Virus record (IMG/VR): IMGVR_UViG_3300030060_002742
Span: 1 to 31,275 of that record
Reading direction: 5' to 3' (one strand)
DNA length: 31,275 nt
DNA from: a virus
Part shown: one piece after another, positions 2,023 to 31,275 of the stretch
Layout: each line of letters opens with the position of its first letter
Numbering within the stretch: the stretch's first letter is position 1
Translations under genes and position numbers: made by a program
Notes under the pieces: generated by a model
Told to the model about the DNA's origin: nothing
The model's database searches: none
Seen by the model: the letters and a program-made list of their open reading frames with translations, nothing else

Positions 2023-4064
2023 TGAGCCGTGTAACTGTATACCAGTCAGATTTTAGTTCAGGGGTTCTTGATCCTCTATTGTTAGGCCGTATTGATTTGG
2101 ACCAATATAAAAAGGGTTTAGAAGAAGCCAAGAATGTAATTGTTTTACCTCAAGGTGGTTTTGAACGTAGACCAGGCACACGCTTCATGCTTGATCTAAC
2201 GTCCCATTTAGGAAGCGGTATTACAGCTACACAAGGGATTAGGCTTATTCCTTTTGAGTTTTCTACCAGTCAGTCTTTCATGCTTGCGTTTGTAAAGAAC
2301 TCTACATCATCAAGTAACAATGTTAGGATGTTTGTCTTTGCGTCAAAGGTACAGATTACAGGGATTAATGGCGGTTCTGATCCGTACCTAGAAGTTTCAA
2401 TGGGAGACATTGACTTATCCAAGGTAAACTTTACGCAATCGGCTGATACTCTTATTCTAGTTCACGAAGATATGTCTCCTATAAGCATTGTAAGAGGAGC
2501 AAGTAATTCTTCTTGGACAGCAGCGACTATTGCTTTAACGATCCCAAAACACGCTTTTACATTAGGTAAGGCTCAAATCTCAGGTAATGTTACACCCTCT
2601 GCTACTTCCGGCTCAATCACCCTAACCTCGGCTGGAAGTAGCTTTACCTCTGCTCATGTTGATCAGTTCTTTACAAGAGATGATGGTTTTGGACGGGTTC
2701 GTATTGTAGAGTTTGTGTCTTCTTCTGAAGTCATAGGTGTTGTAGAAGTACCTTTTTTAAACACGACGGCAATAGCAGATACAGCCCACCATATCGAAAA
2801 TGGTTATGAAGATGCTTTCTCAACATCAAGAGGGTTTCCAAGGTCAGCAACTTTTCACGAAGGTCGGTTGTTTTTTGGTGGCACGAAATCGTTACCTAAT
2901 ACTTTGTTTGGAAGTAGGGTTAATGACTTTTTTAACTTCAAACAATCTCAAGCTCTAGACGACGATGCTTTAAAAGCGAACCTGAGTTCTGACCGCCTAA
3001 ATGCGATTACAAATGTTTTTGCTGCTCGTGACTTACAAATCTTTACAACAGGCGGTGAGTTCTTTGTTCAGCAAACAGAGATTACACCGATTACGCCTAC
3101 CAATCTCACAGTCAAATCAGCCACTAAGAATGGATCAAAAGAAGGTATACGACCTGTTCAAACATCTGATGCAACTTTGTTTATTGATCGTAATGGCGGT
3201 GGCTTGAGAGAGTTTCTCTATAATGATGCACAGTTAAACTATAATGCGAATAACGTATCTTTCTTGGCTAGTCACTTGATCAAGACCCCATTGAAGATGG
3301 CTATCCGTCAATCCACCGATACAGACGAAGGTGATCTTTTATTGATTGCAAATGGTACTGATGGATCTATGGCTTGTTTTTCTATACTTAGACCATTGAA
3401 TGTTGTTGCTGCCAGTGAGTTCGTTACGGATGGTAGTTTCATTGATGTCTCTGTTGATGTTACAGACATTTATACCGTGGTCACACGAACCATAAATTCA
3501 GCAACAAAACACTACGTAGAACTCTTTGATGCTCAAAGAACTACTGATTGCAATTTACAGTTTTTCTCAGGTTCATCCTCTCCAGATGGATCACTTCCCG
3601 GCAGTACTTCTGTCTCTGGCCTTTCTCACTTAGAGGCTAAAACGGTTAAAATCCTTAGAGATGGTTTCGTGTTGTTGGATAAAACCGTGTCGTCAGGTTC
3701 CGTCACAACGGACGTTACTCCATCCGAATACGTAGAGGTCGGACTTGATTACACGGTTGAAGTGAAAACATTACCTTCGGAACCCAACCTGTCCACAGGT
3801 CCAGTTCAATCTAGAAAACGTAGAATTATGGAAGTGACCCCTATTTTAAAAACAACACAAAACGTATCCGTCAATGGCTTTGATGTTCACTTTCGAACCT
3901 TGTCAGATACGCTTGGTTCAACGATTACTGCTTTTACAGGCCGAAAAAGGATTGGCCCTCTTTTAGGTTTTTCAGAAACAGCACAGATTACCTTTTCTCA
4001 ATCTCAACCACTATTCATGACGGTTTTATCCGTAGAATATAAACTAAGTACGGCAGCGAACTAA
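2022..4064 (+). CDS. Tail tubular protein B / nozzle (T7 gp12-like, 680 aa)
   Basis: N-terminus ...FSSGVLDPLLLGRIDLDQYKKGL..N.IVLPQGGFERRPGTRF is typical of podovirus nozzle proteins. Size and position also fit. Confidence 0.7.
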   Translation: MSRVTVYQSDFSSGVLDPLLLGRIDLDQYKKGLEEAKNVIVLPQGGFERRPGTRFMLDLTSHLGSGITATQGIRLIPFEFSTSQSFMLAFVKNSTSSSNNVRMFVFASKVQITGINGGSDPYLEVSMGDIDLSKVNFTQSADTLILVHEDMSPISIVRGASNSSWTAATIALTIPKHAFTLGKAQISGNVTPSATSGSITLTSAGSSFTSAHVDQFFTRDDGFGRVRIVEFVSSSEVIGVVEVPFLNTTAIADTAHHIENGYEDAFSTSRGFPRSATFHEGRLFFGGTKSLPNTLFGSRVNDFFNFKQSQALDDDALKANLSSDRLNAITNVFAARDLQIFTTGGEFFVQQTEITPITPTNLTVKSATKNGSKEGIRPVQTSDATLFIDRNGGGLREFLYNDAQLNYNANNVSFLASHLIKTPLKMAIRQSTDTDEGDLLLIANGTDGSMACFSILRPLNVVAASEFVTDGSFIDVSVDVTDIYTVVTRTINSATKHYVELFDAQRTTDCNLQFFSGSSSPDGSLPGSTSVSGLSHLEAKTVKILRDGFVLLDKTVSSGSVTTDVTPSEYVEVGLDYTVEVKTLPSEPNLSTGPVQSRKRRIMEVTPILKTTQNVSVNGFDVHFRTLSDTLGSTITAFTGRKRIGPLLGFSETAQITFSQSQPLFMTVLSVEYKLSTAAN

Positions 4065-7435: not shown

Positions 7436-10400
7436 ACTTATTCAAGAAGGACTTAGAAAAGGTACTGATGCATTTGCCGATACACTTGGAAATGTTGGGA
7501 AAGAAGCCAAAGCTAAAATATATGGTCCTGATGCTCCAGAAGAAGATATAATTGTTTCTAAAAAAACAGGTACTATTACCGTTAAAGAACTTGGTAATTC
7601 TGAAATTGATGCTATAGACAAAGCAATTAAAGGAGCTGGTTTTAAGGGTAATGTTAATTATGGTTTAGATTTTAAAAAACTTGGGACGCTACTTAAAGAT
7701 AGATTTGACGATGGTACGGTAGATGATCCTTTTTATAGTGATTTTGCAGCACAAGAAGTCTTTGGACTTATGCAACACATAAAAGAAAATAATGCTGAAC
7801 TTTTTAAATATTTTAGAAGAGAAAAAAAATCTCTTATCGAACTTGCAGAAAGTGTAAAAGGTACACCTCTTGAAACAACAATAGCTACTTTTGTAGGCAG
7901 AGTACCAGGCAAAGACCCATTGCCACTACCTGAAGATACATTAGCTGGTCTTATAGCAAGTTATAGAATAACAGATGAATTATTAGCCATACAAAAGGAG
8001 CAGTTAAAAACACAGGATCTAGAGAGCAAAAAACTATTATCACAAAGGTTTGCTTTATTAGGTCAAATACAGGTTAGTTTATCTGCTTCTGTTTCTGGAA
8101 ATGTATCTGAATATGCTAGAGGTATGTCTGTTGTCAGAGGTTTTGCAACTATGTCTGATTTTAACATAAATACCTATACTGAAAATTTAAATCGTATAAT
8201 TAAAGACTTACCAGTTAATGCTTTTGAATGGGATCAAATGTCACCAGCAGAGCATAATCTTATGGCTCTTCAATATTCACAATTACACCCTGCTGGTAAA
8301 AAGTTTTTTACTAAAAATCTATATAATTGGATACCAAAAGCAGGTGCAAAAACATACGATACAATTATGGAAATATATGTCAATTCTGTACTTGCAGCAC
8401 TACCAACACACATGGCCAATGTAACAGGTGGAGCTGTATTTCAGGCTATGTTGATTGCTGAAAAAGGTATGGCAGCAAGAATTGGACAGGTTCGACAGGG
8501 TATAGGTAGAGCTGTTGGAATGAATATGAATAACGCTGATAGAGTGCTTGTCGGTGAAGCTATGGCAGAAATACATGGTGTTCAAATGTCTTTAATGAAC
8601 GCATTTAAGGTTTTAGGTAATTCTTTTATCACAGGAGAAAGGTCAGATTTTCAATCTAAAATTGATTTAAGAGATTTACAAGCTATTGGTAATGAAGAAA
8701 GTATCCCTGCAATATTAAAAAATCTAGGTCGAAAAGATTTATTTTTAAATGTTATTGATATTGTAGGAATTATGACAAGAATGCCAGGTCGTTTTTTAGC
8801 ATCTGAAGATGAGTTTTTTAAGGTGCTGTCTAGAGAAAGAGTTAAATACAGGGAAGCTTTTAGAAGAGCATCATTAGTACAACAAGAAATACTTAAAGCG
8901 AACTCAAGTGGCATATACTTAGGCAATAGAGAACAAGTACAAGAATTAGCTAACAATAAATTTTCTGAGGTATATGAGGATATTTTATTGAACACTAGTC
9001 AAAACAAACATGAAGATGTTTATCAAATGATGAAAGACGAAGCATTAGAAAGTACATTTCAAAATCCATTAGAGGGAATACAGGCTTCATTTGCTAAAAT
9101 AGCTAATATACCAGCACTGAAACCATTTTTCTTTTTGTTTGTTAAAACACCTGTCAACTTATTTAATCAATCTGCTAACAGGGCATTTCCGTTTTCTCCT
9201 GTTTATAAAGCAATAACCAAAGGACCAGGTGCTGTTTCTGGTAAAGAATACGATGAAGCCTTGGCAAAGCTTGCGACAGGTTGGGGTATTTTTGTTACAA
9301 TGCAAAGTATTATGCATTCTGGTATTGCTGACAACATAGTAAGGTTTGTTTCTGGTGCTGGATATGAAGAAGATTATAAATTAAAAGGAACACTTGGTCC
9401 TAATTTTAAAGGTAAACTACGTCAAGCAGATACAGGTAAACAACCATACGCTATAGAAATGAAAAACGCAGACGGCAATTGGGAAAGCATTTCATTACAA
9501 AGACTTGATCCTATATCTGGTACTATAGCTATGATGATAGATACCGCCTTAATGCTACAAAATATGCCAGACGATGAAGGTATGTTATCTGCTGTTACAG
9601 ATGCTTCATTAGCCACTATATTTGCACTTGCAGAATTTTCATCTTCACAAACCTATTTACAAGGTATGTCTGATATTATGCGTGAATTTCAAAATCCTAC
9701 TGGTGAACAAGGAAAAGCCTTTGAAAGATTGGGAAGGTTTTTTGGTGGTAAGCTTGTTGATATAGGAACAAATGTAACTGGTTCTGCTATGGGTCGTATG
9801 TCCTTTGGTCTTGGTAATGCAGCAAATGAATATTTAGGTTATCCAGTTATAGGAGCTACATCTTTTACAGGTATGATGGAAAGAATGAAAGACCCAAGAG
9901 GTAGCAATACTGAGTTAACAGAAATGCAAATGGGTAATTACAATAATTATAATGATATGCCATCGTTTATGGTTGGTGCGTTTAAAGCTTTAAATCGTGC
10001 AAAAGCAAGAGACCCTGTATTCTCTGCATCTGTAGAACCAAGTTTAGATTATTGGGGTAATAATTTAATGCAAGGTGAAGGTAGAGAATTTACTATAGAT
10101 ACACCCTTTGGAAAAGAAGTTGTTGTTAGACCAAGAATGGTAGTAGGTTTAGGTAAAAAACAAATTATAAAACCAAGTATAATTGAAGATGAACTCCACA
10201 GAATAACAATGGCTGGCGGTCCTGTCCTTGAACCTCGTCATAGAAAATACATAGAGATAGGTGGAGAATATATAAACCTGACAGCAGAAGAACAAACCGC
10301 ATACAACAGGACTTTTAATTCTATAGATGAAAATGGAAGATTACCTGGTATGGTTGGATATAATCCAGAACTTACTGTCCAGAAAAAAATGGAAAGAATA

Positions 10401-15227: not shown

Positions 15228-15329
15228 ACGTAACTTTCATAATATGTTACGGTTGACTTTGATAATTTTACTCGTGGTTGTTTGCTTTTACGAGGCAATG
15301 CACACGGAACCTTGGTGGTTGCACATAAA

Positions 15330-16773: not shown

Positions 16774-17226
16774 ATGACTTTTAAATTATCAGCCAACAGC
16801 ATGAGCAAAATGACAGGCATCAAGAATGAATTACATACGATAGTTTGTGAAGCCATACGCCTAACTAAAGTAGACTTTGGTGTTATCTGTGGTCTTAGAA
16901 CTCAAGAAGAACAGGATGCCCTTTTGGCAAAAGGTGCAACACAGACAAAAACGAGTAAGCACATGACAGGAGATGCCGTAGACCTCATGGCGTACGTTGG
17001 TTCGAGAGCAAGTTGGGAACTAAATTTGTATGATGATATTGCAGATGCCATGAAAAAAGCAGCTAAAAATAATAATGTAAAGATACGTTGGGGTGCAGCT
17101 TGGCACATAGATAACTTTGCAGAATATGAAGGTACTGCCGAGGATGCTATGAACGATTACATTGACCTAAGAAGAAGCCAAGGGCGTAGACCGTTCATAG
17201 ATGGTCCTCATTTTGAATTAAATTAA
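16774..17226 (+). CDS. Endolysin, peptidase M15 (VanY/L-Ala-D-Glu peptidase-like, 150 aa)
   Basis: Motifs GLRTQEEQDAL...KGA..T..SKHMTGDAVDL...IRWGAAW...DGPHFEL match the zinc-binding H/D/H architecture of M15 phage peptidases. Confidence 0.85.
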   Translation: MTFKLSANSMSKMTGIKNELHTIVCEAIRLTKVDFGVICGLRTQEEQDALLAKGATQTKTSKHMTGDAVDLMAYVGSRASWELNLYDDIADAMKKAAKNNNVKIRWGAAWHIDNFAEYEGTAEDAMNDYIDLRRSQGRRPFIDGPHFELN

Positions 17227-17451
17227 ATCTCTTATTATCTTGATAGCTCTTGGGTGAGCCTTCTTCGTCTCAATAAATCCTCGTTGAACGAGTTGATCTA
17301 TGAGTGAAGCCATTGAAGCCCTGCTTTTGTGACCTGTGTGTTGCATAATTTCCTCATAGGATGGCATATATTTATGTTTACGATAGTATTTTTTCATAAA
17401 CTTCAAGACTTGAACTTGACGAGGTGTAAGTGGGAAATCTTCCATAATCAT
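17218..17451 (-). CDS. LexA N-terminal DNA-binding-domain-only protein (77 aa; no S24 peptidase domain)
   Basis: LTPRQVQVLKFMKKYYRKHKYMPSYEEIMQHTGHKSRASMASLIDQLVQRGFIETKKAHPRAIKII aligns along its length with E. coli LexA [66 protein letters not shown] (recalled sequence). The ATG overlaps the RecT stop (ATGA). Confidence 0.75.
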   Translation of the reverse strand: MIMEDFPLTPRQVQVLKFMKKYYRKHKYMPSYEEIMQHTGHKSRASMASLIDQLVQRGFIETKKAHPRAIKIIRDLI

Positions 17452-18011
17452 TTTGGTTGCTCCTCAGACTTAGTTTCTGGCTCGCTGACGACCTTCATTT
17501 CTGGGTAGTCTTCTGCTTCTTCTCTGGTAATCACACCTGCCATAGCGTCAGGAAATCCATCTCTCAAAGCAAAACCTCTGGCTCTCATTTGTAACATCCT
17601 ATCAGGATATGATTTCCACGGTCCTCGTGTAGTTAGGTCAGCTTTCTTTGCATCTCTCCAAGAAAATGTTTTAGTGATCTCTTCTATCTCACCACCCTGA
17701 AGTCTTTTGACAGTGCAAGTAGCAGTTCGGTCATCACCTTCACCATCGATCGTTTCTTTGATCCCTTTACAATCGGGATGTCGCCTCACCAATCCGATCA
17801 AAGCATCACCCCAAAGCGTAGGTCTACCGTTAATGACAGCAATGTTTTGAAGTGCTTGAAAAGGATTTAGACCCATGGAAAGACCTGCTTGGATTGCAAC
17901 AAGACAATCAAGTGGTTTGCCACTGTAGGTTTTAGGCACTAGGTTTGAGCTTGAAAACTGTTTGGCAAGCCTCTCGAGTTGAGCGTAGTCCTTTGGAACT
18001 AAATTAGTCAT
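17448..18011 (-). CDS. recT: RecT-family single-strand annealing protein (187 aa)
   Basis: GLNPFQALQNIAVINGRPTLWGDALIGLV...WKSYPDRMLQMRARGFALRDGFPD matches RecT-family patterns. It lies immediately downstream of a YqaJ-type exonuclease. Confidence 0.7.
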   Translation of the reverse strand: MTNLVPKDYAQLERLAKQFSSSNLVPKTYSGKPLDCLVAIQAGLSMGLNPFQALQNIAVINGRPTLWGDALIGLVRRHPDCKGIKETIDGEGDDRTATCTVKRLQGGEIEEITKTFSWRDAKKADLTTRGPWKSYPDRMLQMRARGFALRDGFPDAMAGVITREEAEDYPEMKVVSEPETKSEEQPK

Positions 18012-18935
18012 CTAAATCTCCCTGATTGAAAATCTTTTGTGAGAACGTGCAGGTTTGGCCGGCATCATTTGCTCTGGTTTGGCTGAAACATTGACTGTTT
18101 TGTGTTCAATCAAATAGTTTTTAAAAGTTGCCCGTTCTGAATTAAGCTTTTGCATCACCCCCTGGATTTGAGCATCAATATTTTCCAGGCTATCCTTCCA
18201 CTTGGTCGCTTCTGCTTTGGCAGTCATTCGGCTGTCCAACATCACCTCCATCTGTCGTGCAAACGCATGGTCATCCAAGTTGATGACTGGAGGTTGCTCA
18301 TTGTCCTCCTCGTAGGGAATATCTTTGTCAACCTTGTACCAAAACTCTCGAACTTTACTCATAATTATGGCAATCATCTTCTCTGACCTTTTGTACGGAT
18401 AGAGCTTTACATTTAGATCATTACCCATTTTTGAGATGATCCCGAACCTAGCACCTGTACACGCCATTTGGGTTTGCAATTGCCATTCATATCTCATGAT
18501 GGGGGGAACCGTAGACTTACTTTGAGCATCAGTTTTAAATTCATTAATAATCAAGGATCTCATAGGAAAGTCATTTCCCATTGGATTTGGAATAATTAAG
18601 TCCTTATCGACTTTGAACTTACTGTCACAAGAACAACCAAGACGTTCCTCAACAATGCGATCTGCTCCATTGACTTCAATAATTTCTAGATTGGTCCCTT
18701 CCATCATTGCCTCACGAATTAAATTGTAGCTTTGAAGTTTCACAAAAGGCTCAAGCCAAAGACCTCTTTTCATTGCTTTTGTAGGCTCTTGTAGCAAGGG
18801 AACCACCCCTTGCTTGATTGCCACCCATTGTTTTCTAAGCTCTTCTTTGGTTTGACCTGAAAAACTATTTTCACCTTCAACAATCGTTGCGACTGTAGTT
18901 GCTCCAACTTCCTTTCCATCAACTGTGTGTTTCAT
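18012..18935 (-). CDS. YqaJ/lambda-Exo-like PD-(D/E)XK exonuclease (307 aa from the ATG at 18935)
   Basis: Motifs MKRGLWLEPFV, CSCDSKF, INEFKT (ExK) and YEWQLQTQMACTG match YqaJ-like recombination exonucleases. The ATG at 18935 forms a TGATG overlap with the upstream stop. The GTG at 18947 is an alternative start. Confidence 0.7.
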   Translation of the reverse strand: MKHTVDGKEVGATTVATIVEGENSFSGQTKEELRKQWVAIKQGVVPLLQEPTKAMKRGLWLEPFVKLQSYNLIREAMMEGTNLEIIEVNGADRIVEERLGCSCDSKFKVDKDLIIPNPMGNDFPMRSLIINEFKTDAQSKSTVPPIMRYEWQLQTQMACTGARFGIISKMGNDLNVKLYPYKRSEKMIAIIMSKVREFWYKVDKDIPYEEDNEQPPVINLDDHAFARQMEVMLDSRMTAKAEATKWKDSLENIDAQIQGVMQKLNSERATFKNYLIEHKTVNVSAKPEQMMPAKPARSHKRFSIREI

Positions 18936-19165: not shown

Positions 19166-19272
19166 TTCAGCAATCTCCTCTGCTCAATTTTGTCCACAAT
19201 CTAAAAGGGTAGTTCCATTTTGTCTATTGACCAGGATGCAACCCTTTTAATCTGAACACCTGTTTTTTTTGC

Positions 19273-19692
19273 CTATTTGGCATTCATAAAGCTCCCGTCA
19301 GGAAACCCCATTTTTGTTGGCGACGCTCTTCTTTTTAGTTCTGATCCAGCATGAGTGACAATGAGCTGCGCAAAAATCACGGTGCGATACATATCAGTTT
19401 TAGCATACCCTGTTTTTGTAAGTCCCGAGCGACCACGGATCAGGTTGTCAAGTTCATTAGCTGTTTTTCTTAAAACTTGGATGGCATCTTTTACGTGTTG
19501 ATGATTACACAATGGAACAGTAATGCGACTTGCTACTTTTTTACGGTGAAACAACATATATTGCTCATCAGATAGATTTTCTTGTGCAAACTGTTCCCGT
19601 TGCTTTGCATTGAGATTGGGCAATATAAGCTTTTCTCTCAAAGCGTGACCGCCTAAATCCTTTGTGTCATGTCTGTTCATTTGGCTTTCCAT
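19273..19692 (-). CDS. Hypothetical protein (139 aa from the ATG at 19692)
   Basis: Long ORF in the leftward operon upstream of the exo/recT genes. No motif recognised. The track start at 19695 is a TTG one codon upstream. Confidence 0.55.
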   Translation of the reverse strand: MESQMNRHDTKDLGGHALREKLILPNLNAKQREQFAQENLSDEQYMLFHRKKVASRITVPLCNHQHVKDAIQVLRKTANELDNLIRGRSGLTKTGYAKTDMYRTVIFAQLIVTHAGSELKRRASPTKMGFPDGSFMNAK

Positions 19693-19749
19693 CAATGTTC
19701 ATTTTAGTTTCGGTTTTTGTTTGTGCAAGTTTTTTAAATAAACCGCAGT

Positions 19750-20223
19750 TTAAAATATAAACTCAAGTTCATTTCGTGAACTACTACAAAACGTATAATA
19801 TTCTTTGGCTGATTTAATCATCATTTCGCAAACCTGATAGCATTGAATATTGGGATTTAGGTCGGTTGGTTTTGAAATAAACCACCCTTCTTCCACGCAA
19901 TGTTTAAAGACAAGTGAGACAAATGCTTTTTTAAGACTTGGGAACCTTTCTAGGATTTGTTTTTGTGTTGACCATCTTTTCATAAAAGTCCTCAACGTCA
20001 CAAATGCACCAATCAGGCGTTTGTCGCTGTGACTCCTAAAAAATTGTGTGCATCTTCGCTGAAAGGGATCGTTTGTGCGGATGGGATAATTTTTATAATT
20101 TAAAAGTGTAATTTCGTTGCATAGGTTTGTGAGAATGCTGTCTATAGGTGGTGACGCAGCTTGAATTTTCCTAATTTTTATTGGCATGAGTTTTGCAGTT
20201 TTTTGTCTAGTTCTTAACTTCAT
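19750..20223 (-). CDS. Putative winged-helix DNA-binding protein, candidate repressor (157 aa)
   Basis: The ATG at 20223 overlaps the recombinase stop (TAATG). The central segment RLIGAFVTLRTFMKRWSTQKQILERFPSLKKAFVSLVFKHCVEEGWFISK has a MarR-like wHTH pattern. The repressor role is inferred. Confidence 0.4.
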   Translation of the reverse strand: MKLRTRQKTAKLMPIKIRKIQAASPPIDSILTNLCNEITLLNYKNYPIRTNDPFQRRCTQFFRSHSDKRLIGAFVTLRTFMKRWSTQKQILERFPSLKKAFVSLVFKHCVEEGWFISKPTDLNPNIQCYQVCEMMIKSAKEYYTFCSSSRNELEFIF

Positions 20224-20993
20224 TATTTTTCTCCATAAATTCGTTTGACTAAGTTTGAAACATTCGACGGACCCCACTTGCCACCACGACGGGTCTTGTA
20301 CATGTCAGTGTGATTGTTAAGATAGGATGCCATTTCACGTAAACTGTAGCCTTGTTTGACAAGATCGACGATGACAGGTCGCATCCTTTCAGCAAAAGCA
20401 TCTGCTTCCTCCTGAATAGCTTCATGCCCCTTCTCTCTTGCGTCTTCCATGTTTGAGTGAATGCCTAGCTGGGTGATCTTCTTCCCTGACTTGGTGGTGT
20501 AGTGACCTTTGTTCTCAATGACTTCATTGATGCGTCCCAACGCTGATTTTGTGTTTAAAGATATTTTTTCTCGCATGTCCTGGGCCATGGCGACTTTGAT
20601 GGCAAGAACAAGCTTGTTTTGCTTTGGATCGGCAGACAACATAGGATCGTCACAGACAATCAAGTTTACCTTCCCAGTCTCAACATAGCGCTCAAAGAAT
20701 TGAAGCCCATGCCAAGCAGTCCTGAACAGTCTGGAGATCGAGCTGACAATGACTGTCGCTTTCTTTTTCTTGGCTGCGTCCATTGCTTCCTTCAAAACAG
20801 GTCTTTTGTCAGGATGAACTTTACCACTGATGTTTTCTTCAAACCATTCAACCGTATGATCGCCACCGTTGAGGAAGTCACGAATGTCTTTTTTATCTCT
20901 CTCTGTTTCCTGTTTATTGGTCGATACACGGACATAAGCTATGTAGTTTCCTTTGTGTGGCTGACCAGATGTGCTTTGGTTAGCTGGTGACAT
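20223..20993 (-). CDS. Small serine recombinase (resolvase/invertase catalytic domain plus C-terminal DNA-binding region, 256 aa)
   Basis: YIAYVRVSTNKQ contains the catalytic-Ser motif. Also present are VIVSSISRLFR and a C-terminus ADAFAERMRPVIVDLVKQGYSLREMASYLN...RRGGKWGPSNVSNLVKR, typical of short recombinase-family proteins. GGAGAA RBS lies 6 nt upstream. Confidence 0.85.
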   Translation of the reverse strand: MSPANQSTSGQPHKGNYIAYVRVSTNKQETERDKKDIRDFLNGGDHTVEWFEENISGKVHPDKRPVLKEAMDAAKKKKATVIVSSISRLFRTAWHGLQFFERYVETGKVNLIVCDDPMLSADPKQNKLVLAIKVAMAQDMREKISLNTKSALGRINEVIENKGHYTTKSGKKITQLGIHSNMEDAREKGHEAIQEEADAFAERMRPVIVDLVKQGYSLREMASYLNNHTDMYKTRRGGKWGPSNVSNLVKRIYGEK

Positions 20994-21038
20994 TAAATGT
21001 TCTCCTTTGTATCTATAACAGTTCGTTTAATGTTCGTC

Positions 21039-21068
21039 TTTACTGTACATATACCAGGATGGTACATT
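21039..21068 (+). promoter_or_regulatory. Candidate rightward promoter (TTTACT-N18-TACATT) for the RHH operon
   Basis: Hexamers at 21039-21044 and 21063-21068, about 45 nt upstream of the RHH ATG. Sigma-70-like by eye only. Confidence 0.35.
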
Positions 21069-21074
21069 GTGCAA
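21046..21074 (-). promoter_or_regulatory. Candidate leftward promoter (TTGCAC-N17-TATGTA) for the recombinase operon
   Basis: On the minus strand the -35 is at 21074-21069 and the -10 at 21051-21046. It interdigitates with the rightward promoter, so each -10 abuts the other promoter's -35. Confidence 0.35.
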
Positions 21075-21111
21075 GACCTAGATGTTACTTTTTTTTGAAC
21101 GAAGGTGAATT

Positions 21112-21261
21112 ATGAAGCAGGTACACATTAGAATAAACGACGAAGTCTATGAAAAACTTAAAGAATTAGCCGAGAAGGATCGTAGATCAATGGCTAGTTT
21201 GGCCGAATACATTTTATCAAAAGGCTTGCACGATTTTAAAAAAGAGCTTGAAAAAGCATGA
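21112..21261 (+). CDS. Ribbon-helix-helix (CopG/Arc/MetJ-type) DNA-binding protein, 49 aa; candidate Cro-like regulator
   Basis: MKQVHIRINDEVYEKLKELAEKDRRSMASLAEYILSKGL is a textbook RHH beta-strand plus two helices. GAAGGTG RBS. Missed by the ORF track because it is under 60 aa. Confidence 0.75.
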   Translation: MKQVHIRINDEVYEKLKELAEKDRRSMASLAEYILSKGLHDFKKELEKA

Positions 21262-21482
21262 CCCCGGAGTTCAGTCAACCAACACTTGCATTTTTGCTTT
21301 TGGAGTTCACTTCCCTTGCCGATTGTCAGGTTGTCGTAAAGCATCTGGTTGGTTTCATCCATCACAATTTGTTCGTGAATTGTCACAATCACGATGACAG
21401 CTATGCATTTTGGTTTGAACACTGGATGCAACACAATCATTTTCGAGAAGTTCCACCTTCAAGACCGAAGGTGCTTGAATGA
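21258..21482 (+). CDS. His/aromatic-rich 74-aa hypothetical protein
   Basis: ATGA overlap with the RHH stop and ATGA overlap with the next gene. Translational coupling and the downstream RBS hairpin argue that it is translated. No homolog recognised. Confidence 0.4.
   Translation: MTPEFSQPTLAFLLLEFTSLADCQVVVKHLVGFIHHNLFVNCHNHDDSYAFWFEHWMQHNHFREVPPSRPKVLE
21454..21473 (+). promoter_or_regulatory. Hairpin CACCTTC-aagacc-GAAGGTG sequestering the RBS of the DUF1064 gene
   Basis: Perfect 7-bp stem. The right arm is the AAGGTG Shine-Dalgarno, 5 nt upstream of the ATG at 21479. Confidence 0.55.
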
Positions 21483-21817
21483 GGTTTAACAAGTTCAATG
21501 CCCACAAAACCGAGGTCGATGGCATTTTATTTGACAGTAAGAAAGAAGCCACAAGATATAGTGAATTAAAGTATTTGGAGAAAGCAGGTCAGATACACAA
21601 CCTGGAGCTTCAACCCAAGTTTGAATGTATAGTGAAGGAGAAGAAGATATGTACCTACAGAGCAGATTTCAGATATTTCGACAAGTTCCAGAGGGGCGTG
21701 TTGGGTCAGGAAGGAACTATGGTAGTCGAGGACGTAAAGGGCTTCAAAACACCAACCTACAGGTTGAAAAAGAAGCTGGTCGAGGCATTGTTCCAGGTGA
21801 AGATAACCGAATTATGA
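21479..21817 (+). CDS. DUF1064-family protein (PD-(D/E)XK nuclease-like, 112 aa)
   Basis: NKFNAHKTEVDGILFDSKKEATRYSEL..LEKAGQI..LELQPKF......YRADF.Y......VEDVKGFKTPTYRLKKKL matches the DUF1064 pattern known from phage replication modules. Confidence 0.8.
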   Translation: MRFNKFNAHKTEVDGILFDSKKEATRYSELKYLEKAGQIHNLELQPKFECIVKEKKICTYRADFRYFDKFQRGVLGQEGTMVVEDVKGFKTPTYRLKKKLVEALFQVKITEL

Positions 21818-22110
21818 TTACAACAATTGACTTAGCCTTGGTTTTTCAAGAAATAACAAAAATTTCATTTACGGTTATGTATGAGGATTGTCGAAAGGAC
21901 AACGAGTTCATTCACCTGCGTTTCATGTGGACAGGCGTTTGTCGTTTCTTCAAGCGATCCTATCCTCAAATCGCTAAAACAATTAGAAAGGATCATTCGA
22001 CTTGCGTGTTTTATTACAAGCGTCATCTAATGATGATGGACAAATACGACTGGTACTCAGAAAGCTACCTTCTTTTGTTGGATGACACACTGGATCGTTT
22101 TGGGGTTTAA
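21814..22110 (+). CDS. DnaA domain-IV-like helix-turn-helix protein (98 aa, stand-alone)
   Basis: ATGA overlap with the DUF1064 stop. EFIHLRFMWTGVCRFFKRSYPQIAKTIRKDHSTCVFYYKRHLMMMD parallels E. coli DnaA ...[44 protein letters not shown] (recalled sequence), including the DH[ST]T motif. Confidence 0.65.
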   Translation: MITTIDLALVFQEITKISFTVMYEDCRKDNEFIHLRFMWTGVCRFFKRSYPQIAKTIRKDHSTCVFYYKRHLMMMDKYDWYSESYLLLLDDTLDRFGV

Positions 22111-30065: not shown

Positions 30066-30852
30066 AGAAGAAAAGTTAGAAGAAGAGAAAGTGGAGGAAA
30101 CAGCAACAGAAGAAAAACCACAGGGGTTGATGGCTGAAGCAAAAAAAGAAGAAGAAAAAATAGAAGATGAAGAAATAAATCACGACGTTAAGGAAGCAGA
30201 ATTAAAAAAACCTGATTATCTCCCTGAGGAATACTGGGATGAGGAGAACGGAACTAAACTTGAGGCGTTGATGGACGCATTTACAAAACAGGAAAAAAGC
30301 TATCAGGAACTTCGCAAAAAGATGTCTCGGGGAGATCATAAGCCTCCTGAAAAGTATACATGGGAAAACCTTGGAGAAGTTGATCCAGATGATGCTTTAC
30401 TTGGAACCTATACGGAATGGGCCAAGGAGAATGGCATTACTCAAGATGCTTTTGATAAATTGGGTCAGGCATTTACAGAATATCAGAATAATTTTGTTAA
30501 AGATGCTGAGATGGACCTTGAAAAAGAACGTCAACTATTGGGAAAGAATGCAAATGAAATCATTAATAGCAATGTGGAATGGGGTCGTGGGTTGGTTGCC
30601 AAGGGTGTTTTCACGGAAGCAGACTACGACCAACTCGAAATCCTTGGGGGATCAGCCAAAGGCCAAAGGGTTATCCAGAAAATCAGGGGCATCACAGGGG
30701 AAAAGGAAATCCCCATTGCGTCAATCGAGGGCGAAGCACCAGACCAAGAAGAACTTATGATGATGGTTCAGGATGCCAGATACCAAAATGATCCGACCTA
30801 CCGTAAGAAAGTAGAGAAGATGTATCAGGAAGCCTATTCCAATTCATATTAG
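30058..30852 (+). CDS. Scaffolding protein (264 aa)
   Basis: Highly acidic Glu/Lys-rich N-terminus with helical character. Located between the portal and capsid genes. Confidence 0.65.
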   Translation: MAEEEKLEEEKVEETATEEKPQGLMAEAKKEEEKIEDEEINHDVKEAELKKPDYLPEEYWDEENGTKLEALMDAFTKQEKSYQELRKKMSRGDHKPPEKYTWENLGEVDPDDALLGTYTEWAKENGITQDAFDKLGQAFTEYQNNFVKDAEMDLEKERQLLGKNANEIINSNVEWGRGLVAKGVFTEADYDQLEILGGSAKGQRVIQKIRGITGEKEIPIASIEGEAPDQEELMMMVQDARYQNDPTYRKKVEKMYQEAYSNSY

Positions 30853-31049
30853 CTAGATGTATTCTCTTGGTTTTGAACAATAGAGGGGTCTCCAAAATTC
30901 TTATCAATCCACCACATTGGGATCTGTATACTTCTACCAATTCTTACGACAGGTATTAACTCAGCATCTATATCCCTTAAAACTTTGCTATATGAGTAAC
31001 CTGTTTTCTTTGCATACTCTTTGGGCTTAAGGCTTATTCTTTCTGTCAT
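30849..31049 (-). CDS. Excisionase/AlpA-type (HTH_17, MerR-like) DNA-binding protein, 66 aa from the ATG at 31049
   Basis: LKPKEYAKKTGYSYSKVLRDIDAELIPVVRIGRSIQIPMWWI is the excisionase-family HTH pattern. AAGGAG RBS lies 7 nt upstream of the ATG at 31049, whereas the track start at 31097 is a GTG. The stop overlaps the scaffold stop convergently. Confidence 0.7.
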   Translation of the reverse strand: MTERISLKPKEYAKKTGYSYSKVLRDIDAELIPVVRIGRSIQIPMWWIDKNFGDPSIVQNQENTSS

Positions 31050-31074
31050 TCGGTTACTCCTTCTATTAAAAAGT

Positions 31075-31104
31075 TTGACGTTCGTTCTATCTGACACTCA
31101 TAAT
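31075..31104 (+). promoter_or_regulatory. Candidate rightward promoter TTGACG-N18-CATAAT pointing toward the capsid gene
   Basis: Hexamers at 31075-31080 and 31099-31104. The -10 overlaps the -10 of the opposing xis-like promoter. Confidence 0.3.
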
Positions 31105-31127
31105 AACACTTATTGTAGGTAATTCAA
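31100..31127 (-). promoter_or_regulatory. Candidate promoter for the xis-like gene (TTGAAT-N16-TATTAT)
   Basis: On the minus strand the -35 is at 31127-31122, inside the palindrome, and the -10 is at 31105-31100, about 50 nt upstream of the ATG. Confidence 0.35.
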
Positions 31128-31136
31128 TTACCCACA
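31114..31136. promoter_or_regulatory. 23-bp near-perfect palindrome TGTAGGTAATT-C-AATTACCCACA (perfect core GGTAATTCAATTACC, 31118-31132)
   Basis: 10 of 11 arm positions are complementary. It overlaps the -35 of the candidate xis-like promoter. Confidence 0.6.
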
Positions 31137-31176
31137 ACACGGAACAAGGATAAAAATATGCCCATTCCAATATATT

Positions 31177-31275
31177 ATCGGTTACTCCTTAGTGTAAAAG
31201 GTTCGACTTTCATTAAATCTACTATTAAATGTAACTAATAATATTTAACGAGACAACGATAACATAACGATAACA
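31177..31275. repeat. Terminal overlap copy 2 (identical to 1-99)
   Basis: Same as above. A length of exactly 99 nt looks like an assembler k-mer overlap, but a true direct terminal repeat cannot be excluded. Confidence 0.95.

Follow-up and report, generated by a model that had tools for sequence, protein, structure and literature searches.

The truncated LexA homologue gp6 of phage GIL01 consists of the DNA-binding domain alone and is conserved in tectiviruses; it activates the late promoter P3 from a palindrome of its own, which overlaps the -35 element of that promoter, and its residue Lys38 is essential for DNA binding (PMC6182141). Here, we analyzed a viral DNA of 31,275 nucleotides (IMG/VR record IMGVR_UViG_3300030060_002742), referred to at its full length as the window, in which a gene at 17218-17451 encodes a 77-amino-acid (aa) protein of similar build. 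Like gp6 of GIL01/Bam35 (66 aa), this protein comprises a LexA winged-helix domain only, without cleavage or dimerization domain, and it is phage-encoded in a predicted early operon. The two differ in origin and context, as gp6 is a Bacillus tectivirus protein whose gene follows the DNA polymerase gene, whereas the 77-aa protein comes from a marine podovirus and its gene is coupled to recT. Late-promoter activation has been demonstrated for gp6. In sequence, gp6 aligned end-to-end with the family profile of the 77-aa protein (hhalign probability 98.7%, E 4.7e-16, 65 columns, 26% identity), and pairwise BLASTP of the 77-aa protein against gp6 gave no match.

Family, fold and the missing cleavage module

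The product of the gene at 17218-17451 is almost certainly a LexA-type DNA-binding protein without the cleavage module.

17218..17451 including the stop codon, minus strand: stand-alone LexA-type winged-helix gene (77 aa) with an ATG start, identified by profile, PDB and model matches
approximately residues 44-56 of the 77-aa protein: helix 3, the recognition helix

The protein matched Pfam LexA_DNA_bind (PF01726) with E 2.5e-13 and 50 bits (gathering score 23.7), its residues 7-69 lying on profile positions 3-65 of 65, and the remaining Pfam winged-helix families gave sub-threshold scores. Against the NCBIfam LexA equivalog TIGR00498 it scored 47 bits, below the cut-off of 110.95, and covered just model positions 3-70 of 203. 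Among PDB sequences, the top phmmer match was T. maritima LexA residues 2-69, and residues 4-70 of E. coli LexA aligned too. An AlphaFold model built with 56 homologues in the input had a mean predicted local distance difference test score of 90.2 and the topology helix-helix-helix-strand-strand. When this model was used for a fold search of the PDB, the top nine matches were LexA, with template modelling (TM) scores of 0.79-0.83 and root-mean-square deviations of 1.0-1.4 Å over 65-69 residues, whereas winged helices other than LexA reached TM scores of 0.70 at most. The likeness to bacterial LexA (TIGR00498; PDB 1JHH, 3JSO, 3K2Z) is thus one of the N-terminal fold, at a TM score of about 0.8, and of an alignment with LexA residues 4-70. 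The first-pass annotation of this DNA, made from the letters alone, had placed a 77-aa LexA DNA-binding domain at 17218-17451; the open reading frame (ORF), the PF01726 match, the restriction of the TIGR00498 match to positions 3-70 and the fold matches all bear this out, with no other winged helix-turn-helix family above threshold in the profile search that it had proposed. Within the recognition helix the protein departs from E. coli LexA, whose Asn41, Ala42 and Glu45, reportedly named as base-contacting residues in the 3JSO paper, correspond in the alignment to Ala45, Ser46 and Ser49.

LexA cleaves itself at Ala84-Gly85, and Ser119 and Lys156 of this reaction lie in its C-terminal domain. 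The 77-aa protein stops about four residues past the wing, at approximately LexA residue 73, and its sequence contains no Ala-Gly dipeptide. E. coli LexA plus nine further LexA-like proteins of full length served as tblastn queries against all frames of the window. With these ten proteins, just the N-terminal approximately 70 residues matched, at 17227-17445, and no C-terminal LexA/S24 match was found anywhere in the window at E<0.1. A hidden S24 domain, restored by a missed downstream exon or a frameshift, had been raised as the finding that would overturn the first reading of the gene, and it was ruled out by this search. The linker, the Ala-Gly site, the S24 domain with its Ser/Lys dyad and the dimer interface of bacterial LexA are therefore all missing from the protein; the sequence, the TIGR00498 coverage and the tblastn result agree in this with the earlier description. 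From established LexA biochemistry, RecA* should be unable to inactivate such a protein, and we judge this earlier inference sound, given the missing linker, cleavage site and S24 domain. Since LexA dimerizes through the domain that is missing here, the 77-aa protein would not be expected to form mixed dimers with LexA. The idea that it poisons LexA function, which would require that domain, is thus unsupported.

Stand-alone LexA domains are common in phages and already annotated, and the 77-aa protein is another case. In BFVD, many viral proteins of 65-85 aa with the same fold are named 'LexA repressor DNA-binding domain-containing protein'. PHROG matches were 3502 (best, E 2e-17), 24920 and 362, the last of which is annotated as 'transcriptional repressor', and tblastn detected relatives with 30-37% identity in pelagiphages, cyanophages and Bacillus phages. 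The proteins of pelagiphages HTVC103P, HTVC104P and HTVC106P ('transcriptional repressor LexA') have the same single-domain architecture and size, and those of Bacillus phage 11143 ('LexA DNA-binding domain protein'), Mycobacterium phage Wildcat and PHROGs 3502 and 362 are likewise single domains of similar size. Their genomic contexts differ; HTVC106P gp18, for example, is surrounded by early hypothetical genes and has no recT close by. An exhaustive search returned 1141 clusters at 50% identity, and 94 of the best 150 were 130 aa or shorter. Its top match, P0004 (170 aa; 68% identity over residues 1-56), was considered as a longer relative and rejected as an assembly chimera with an adaptor-derived peptide, its tail containing SYTHLRAHETDS, which we take to be translated sequencing-adaptor sequence.

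Other arrangements of the domain were also seen. Some metagenomic relatives (P0005, P0007, P0008, P0009, P0010 and P0012) carry a tandem LexA_DNA_bind pair on a single chain of approximately 150-200 aa, and P0009 has an S24 peptidase in addition to its two domains. On a Methylobacterium aquaticum megaplasmid (L181), an unannotated stand-alone LexA-like domain with the helix SKSGIGRLL is located at 1582-1848; it adjoins a transposase and a helicase-like gene in this alphaproteobacterial replicon.

Coupling to recT and the variable recognition helix

The gene closes an operon of recombination genes, as the first-pass annotation had described. Its start codon overlaps the recT stop codon in an ATGA and is preceded by GAGGAG, which supports the translational coupling to recT at the end of the exo-recT operon.

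17448..17465, minus strand: coupling signal GAGGAG-N8-ATGA, in which the recT TGA (17450-17448) overlaps the LexA-domain ATG (17451-17449)
17465-17460, minus strand: Shine-Dalgarno sequence GAGGAG ahead of the LexA-domain ATG
17448..18011, minus strand: recT, encoding a RecT-family single-strand annealing protein of 187 aa (Pfam RecT, 33 bits; phrog_561, E 3.4e-50)
18012..18935, minus strand: RecE/YqaJ-like recombination exonuclease of 307 aa, a public gene call (phrog_434, E 6.5e-19; weak YqaJ match)

The recT/LexA-domain pair, with overlapping stop and start, was present in every retrieved related lineage that has RecT. It was kept in lineages L173, L177, L178, L179 and L184 despite recombinases just 38-48% identical to that of the window, and RecT sizes across the lineages sharing this adjacency ranged from 187 to 349 aa. 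Lineage L178 was at one point taken to be without a LexA-domain gene, which was rejected because an uncalled 70-aa LexA-domain ORF at 9064-9276 is ATGA-coupled to recT and matches the family profile with E 5e-22. As this ORF was missed by public gene calls, presence and absence counts based on such calls would be wrong. In the OM43 phage MEP301, an ERF protein stands in place of RecT and the LexA-domain gene is absent.

The protein itself is conserved, except at the surface expected to read DNA. An identical 77-aa protein was found on 12 marine contigs, and orthologues of the window clade were 73-77% identical. The ratio of nonsynonymous to synonymous substitution rates (dN/dS) of the gene against its orthologues was 0.07-0.16, and the gene is therefore real and constrained. 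Between the window and its closest relatives, dN was 0.46-0.59 for residues 42-53, at the recognition helix, compared with 0.12-0.15 elsewhere. No other part of the protein varied as much as helix 3, also when phages of near-identical genome were compared. By lineage, helix 3 reads as follows.

the window: SRASMASLI
close relatives: SKSRIAAIM
L173: SDSVIIECL
L177: STNSVFMLL
L178: SSSHNIWRY
L179: PLSTAHGLV
L184: SSTSVHRIL

A compensated frameshift behind these differences was considered and rejected, since the changes are codon-by-codon substitutions. An N-terminal I-M-x-D-F-P extension ahead of the LexA-type helix 1 is kept in several lineages. As far as the sequences go, purifying selection combined with a hypervariable helix 3 is the pattern expected of phage-specific operator/regulator pairs. 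It recalls the CI/Cro-type immunity regulators of lambdoid phages, which are also small phage DNA-binding proteins whose recognition helix diversifies between close phages. Unlike those regulators, the 77-aa protein is a LexA winged helix and not a lambda-repressor helix-turn-helix, and no operator set covaries with the LexA domain; the operator at the divergent promoter covaries instead with an Arc-like ribbon-helix-helix (RHH) protein, as described below.

The window ends are identical over 99 nt (bases 1-99 equal 31177-31275), and the window is therefore a circularly closed complete phage genome of approximately 31,176 bp. Genes for a T7-like portal, a capsid, a terminase, the tail and lysis are present and polymerases are absent, and the window is a complete marine podovirus genome. 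The nearest cultured relative is MEP301 (58% portal identity), followed by pelagiphages. MEP301 has a similar layout, in which a short leftward operon (resolvase, exonuclease, annealing protein) converges on lysis genes. The contigs came from Tara Oceans and further marine metagenomes, and the capsid protein of the window has thousands of relatives in ocean metagenomes. A scan of IMG/VR and GTDB genomes yielded no close relatives, prophage or host, just unrelated gut-phage proteins. Megablast of the window against phage records and Rfam and tRNA scans of the window gave no match.

In the leftward operon, the genes follow the order serine recombinase, 157-aa winged-helix protein, two small proteins, exonuclease, RecT and the LexA-domain gene. 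The rightward operon begins with the Arc-like RHH gene and continues with replication, packaging, structural and lysis genes.

20223..20993, minus strand: small serine recombinase, the first gene of the leftward operon (Pfam Resolvase, E 1.6e-21; phrog_125)
19750..20223, minus strand: post-recombinase winged-helix protein of 157 aa, the second gene of the leftward operon
21112..21261, plus strand: Arc-like RHH repressor, the first gene of the rightward operon (Pfam RHH_5/Arc; phrog_3431)
16774..17226, plus strand: M15 endolysin gene, convergent to the LexA-domain gene

The last 9 nt of the LexA-domain gene and of the endolysin gene overlap, so that the convergent 9-nt overlap reported earlier is real. 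Beside identical LexA-domain proteins, the endolysins of two contigs differ, being an M15 peptidase in L001 (10226-10678) and a GH108 plus PG_binding_3 protein in L002 (10231-10746), and the lysis module is exchanged exactly at the convergent junction. In the window, a DUF1064/Holliday-junction-resolvase-like gene (Pfam E 9e-23, PHROG E 5e-34) lies at 21479-21817, overlapping the 5' part of the ORF at 21625-22110; it is absent from the public gene calls of the identical Tara contig. An apparent gap at 15228-15281 with an inverted repeat was examined as a noncoding site and rejected, as it codes for a small membrane peptide.

Promoters and candidate operators

The region between the two divergent operons, 20994-21111, had been proposed in the first-pass annotation as a site of phage operators. 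Operator-like elements do occur there and at an internal promoter-like site, which lies upstream of the sub-operon ending with the LexA-domain gene; within 20994-21111, as set out below, the palindrome tracks the RHH protein and the direct repeat tracks the 157-aa winged-helix protein.

21046..21074, minus strand: leftward promoter P_L (TTGCAC, 17-nt spacer, TATGTA), predicted from the sequence and kept in eight lineages
21052..21064, no strand: putative palindromic operator TACCA-N3-TGGTA in the P_L spacer
21021..21035, minus strand: direct repeat GAAC-N7-GAAC, just past the -10 of P_L (approximately +4 to +18)
19675..19728, minus strand: internal promoter-like site TTGCAC-16-TAAAAT, followed by phased GAAC-N7-GAAA-N7-GAAC

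In the palindrome, 10 of 10 arm columns were invariant compared with 0 of 3 spacer columns (P 0.0035). An operator of the general form TAnCA-N3-TGnTA occupies the same place in L184, L187, L178, L179 and L186, and the versions in other lineages are TAGCA-N3-TGCTA or TATCA-N3-TGCTA. In the RHH beta-strand, the window has KQVHIR and L187 has KQINIR, and other lineages carry PLY[IV]R or [VA]LF[CV]R. The symmetric operator change from TACCA/TGGTA to TAGCA/TGCTA tracks the beta-strand change from His to Asn, and overall the operator versions match the beta-strand residue (His, Asn, Tyr/Phe). By this covariation we assign the P_L palindrome and the Arc-like RHH protein to each other as a clean putative repressor-operator pair.

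On the opposite strand, the direct repeat at P_L is GTTC-N7-GTTC, the form of the alphaproteobacterial LexA box (PMC8565304, PMC9578287). Within the window clade, 8 of 8 arm columns of the P_L box were invariant compared with 2 of 7 spacer columns (Fisher P 0.007), and a box with at most one mismatch is kept in six further lineages, at the same place in L178, L179, L184, L186 and L187. Close relatives have a second GAAC-N7-GAAC copy at the internal promoter-like site, where the window has the phased GAAC/GAAA series. In the leftward operons of approximately 4 kb, GWAC-N7-GWAC occurs on the sense strand just at P_L and the internal promoter, with about 0.25 expected per strand. GTTC-N7-GTTC was found at four sites in the window compared with 1.0 expected, one of the four being in a regulatory region; the GAAC/GTTC tetranucleotide density at P_L was no outlier, with just a tandem duplication in L168 standing out; and GAAC-N7-GAAC with one mismatch occurs at chance frequency genome-wide. 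The GTTC-N7-GTTC copy in the endolysin gene was rejected as an operator, as it recurs in relatives because it encodes the conserved R-T-x-x-E-Q. Across lineages the recognition helix of the 157-aa winged-helix protein is conserved, and the P_L box stays constant while helix 3 of the LexA domain changes. From these sequence comparisons, the 157-aa protein appears to be a better candidate binder of the GAAC-N7-GAAC boxes than the LexA domain; host LexA is a further candidate for the P_L box.

Related repeats were noted at further positions, with GWAC-N7-GWAC in L168 at approximately 3728-3742 and in L092 at approximately 1620-1634; such repeats might point to an alphaproteobacterial host. In L168 (3650-3710) and L094 (287-347), a tandem triplication has left 19-bp units GTTCACGnnATGAACnnnn at the 3' end of the post-recombinase gene, so that three GAAC-N4-GTTC palindromes precede the internal promoter. 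In the window, one unit is perfect (19767-19781) and one is decayed. As an operator, this 15-bp palindrome GTTCACGAAATGAAC at 19767-19781 was rejected, since it corresponds to the codons S-S-R-N-E-L of the upstream gene and shows no link to helix type.

The scan of the phage for SOS boxes that had been proposed earlier gave no support for targets of the known bacterial types. No perfect E. coli-type CTGT-N8-ACAG site was found in the window, and the 8 one-mismatch sites were not above chance (11.6 expected). The Gram-positive-type GAAC-N4-GTTC had one window site, inside the coding region of a tail gene.

The other proposed target, 31098-31176, holds a 25-bp palindrome TTGTAGGTAATTcAATTACCCACAA at 31113-31137, in the promoter-like region of a minus-strand gene of 82 aa. 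This gene (span with the palindrome 30849-31137) has a weak excisionase-type match, and an alternative start at ATG 31049, with a good ribosome-binding site, would give 66 aa. Both gene and palindrome are absent from L187/L188, in which the scaffold gene directly precedes the capsid leader. The palindrome is therefore unlikely to be the operator of a LexA-domain protein that is universal in the group; it is part of an accessory stretch inserted between the scaffold gene and the capsid gene. Several repeats lie close by. Three tandem 11-nt units AACGATAACAT are located at 79-111 (and 31255-31275) upstream of the capsid gene, and the palindrome region lies between the two copies of a 13-nt direct repeat TCGGTTACTCCTT, at 31050-31062 and 31178-31190; these repeats might represent an origin, a packaging site or the scar of a recombination event. 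The noncoding stretch at approximately 155-226, just before the capsid gene, is conserved in L187 at approximately 9895-9950 (77% capsid identity) and contains the motif GGACAAGC[CG]ATT twice; it could be a late promoter or leader element, and Rfam gave no match. In the window as a whole, no late promoter was delimited.

Proposed role and alternatives

The 77-aa protein is probably a sequence-specific transcription regulator. We tentatively favor, at slightly short of an even balance, the reading that it acts as a phage transcription factor of the gp6 kind, whose operator lies on the phage genome and is specific to the lineage. Whether its target lies there and not in host SOS boxes is, taken by itself, close to evenly balanced. 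From the features above we infer DNA binding, RecA insensitivity, early expression and a phage target. The protein would be made last from the leftward early operon, by translational coupling to recT, and, as linker, cleavage site and S24 domain are all missing, the stand-alone winged helix would act independently of RecA*. It would bind a phage operator that differs between lineages, and would hand control from the early-left operon over to a different phage promoter or return it to phage promoters. Host SOS boxes would most likely be left unoccupied.

Several results weigh against this reading. Window scans and the lineage comparison yielded no operator assignable to the LexA domain, and just four noncoding stretches could hold one (20994-21111, 19693-19749, 19166-19272 and 31098-253). 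The P_L palindrome was rejected as its operator, because it covaries with the RHH protein and lineages with differing LexA-domain helices share one operator. The LexA domain co-occurs with the P_L box in 4 of 5 lineages; the fifth, L173, has the LexA domain and no box, and it also has no 157-aa winged-helix gene, which is present wherever the box is. The gp6 site GaCACAnnTGTGaC / CACA-N2-TGTG was absent from the window by scan, and gp6 Lys38 aligns with Ala45 of the 77-aa protein (hhalign), so that gp6-like action would need another specificity. Finally, host targets may still apply, no host having been found.

One such target is the host SOS regulon. The first-pass annotation had suggested an uncleavable SOS blocker, and in that scenario, which we consider unlikely, the protein would act as a LexA surrogate occupying host SOS boxes, keeping the SOS regulon, or SOS-triggered defences and resident prophages, off while the phage exonuclease and RecT produce single-stranded DNA, by which RecA becomes activated. 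The missing cleavage module fits this scenario, as do the co-translation with recT wherever RecT exists and the absence from the ERF-using MEP301, since a need tied to recombination intermediates would give this pattern. Most orthologues begin helix 3 with S-x-S-x-[VI] or S-x-x-[ST]-[VM], the same start as in an annotated Bacillota LexA and in alpha-like short proteins, and the box at P_L has the alphaproteobacterial form. The recognition helix speaks against a blocker: it is the least conserved part among orthologues, whereas a protein imitating a single host repressor should hold its base-contacting residues constant. The suggestion is unsupported. A protein without the dimerization domain would also have low affinity for dyad or direct-repeat boxes unless it self-associated on DNA. 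In addition, OM43, the host of the nearest cultured phage, is not an alphaproteobacterium, and E. coli-type boxes are not in excess in the phage.

Similarly improbable is an auto-repressor that would bind the GAAC-N7-GAAC repeats at P_L and the internal promoter, giving a RecA-independent negative feedback, possibly on boxes shared with host LexA. The exact alphaproteobacterial motif form (PMC8565304, PMC9578287), the invariant arms around a free spacer (Fisher P 0.007), the positional conservation with at most one mismatch in the five lineages listed above, the restriction of sense-strand GWAC-N7-GWAC matches in the leftward operon to these two promoters, and the absence of both box and LexA domain from MEP301 all fit such a feedback. 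L173, with its LexA domain and no box, argues the other way, and the 157-aa winged-helix gene tracks the box better. It is also the 157-aa protein that has the conserved recognition helix, whereas helix 3 of the LexA domain changes under a constant box; the GAAC/GTTC density at P_L is not significantly high, and the one-mismatch motif is at chance level genome-wide. We regard as still less probable an accessory of the recombination module, in which the winged helix would bring RecT/exonuclease or the serine recombinase to particular DNA, by tethering or targeting, in the manner of a directionality or loading factor. The strict recT adjacency and stop/start overlap, although RecT varies from 187 to 349 aa, the absence of the gene where ERF replaces RecT, and the I-M-x-D-F-P extension conserved in several lineages are consistent with it. 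Nevertheless, no recT lies close to the stand-alone domain of HTVC106P or of GIL01, adjacency of genes within an operon says little about physical interaction when a phage genome is compact, and we know of no precedent for a LexA-type domain as a recombination accessory. The remaining probability falls to explanations beyond the favored phage transcription factor and these three alternatives.

If the protein did act on host SOS boxes, it would represent a new phage way to uncouple recombination from the host damage response; we hold it quite unlikely, however, that a RecA-proof LexA surrogate made in fixed proportion with RecT is a conserved anti-SOS device of abundant marine podoviruses. Were it an ordinary gp6-like regulator, the finding would mainly serve annotation, and abundant uncultured marine podoviruses would obtain a named regulator and a first control-region map, with a leftward promoter, an Arc-like operator and a GAAC-N7-GAAC box. 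The invariant recT/LexA-domain coupling and the fast-changing helix on a conserved scaffold are worth experiments, and the helix-3 series offers a natural set for studying specificity change in LexA-type winged helices.

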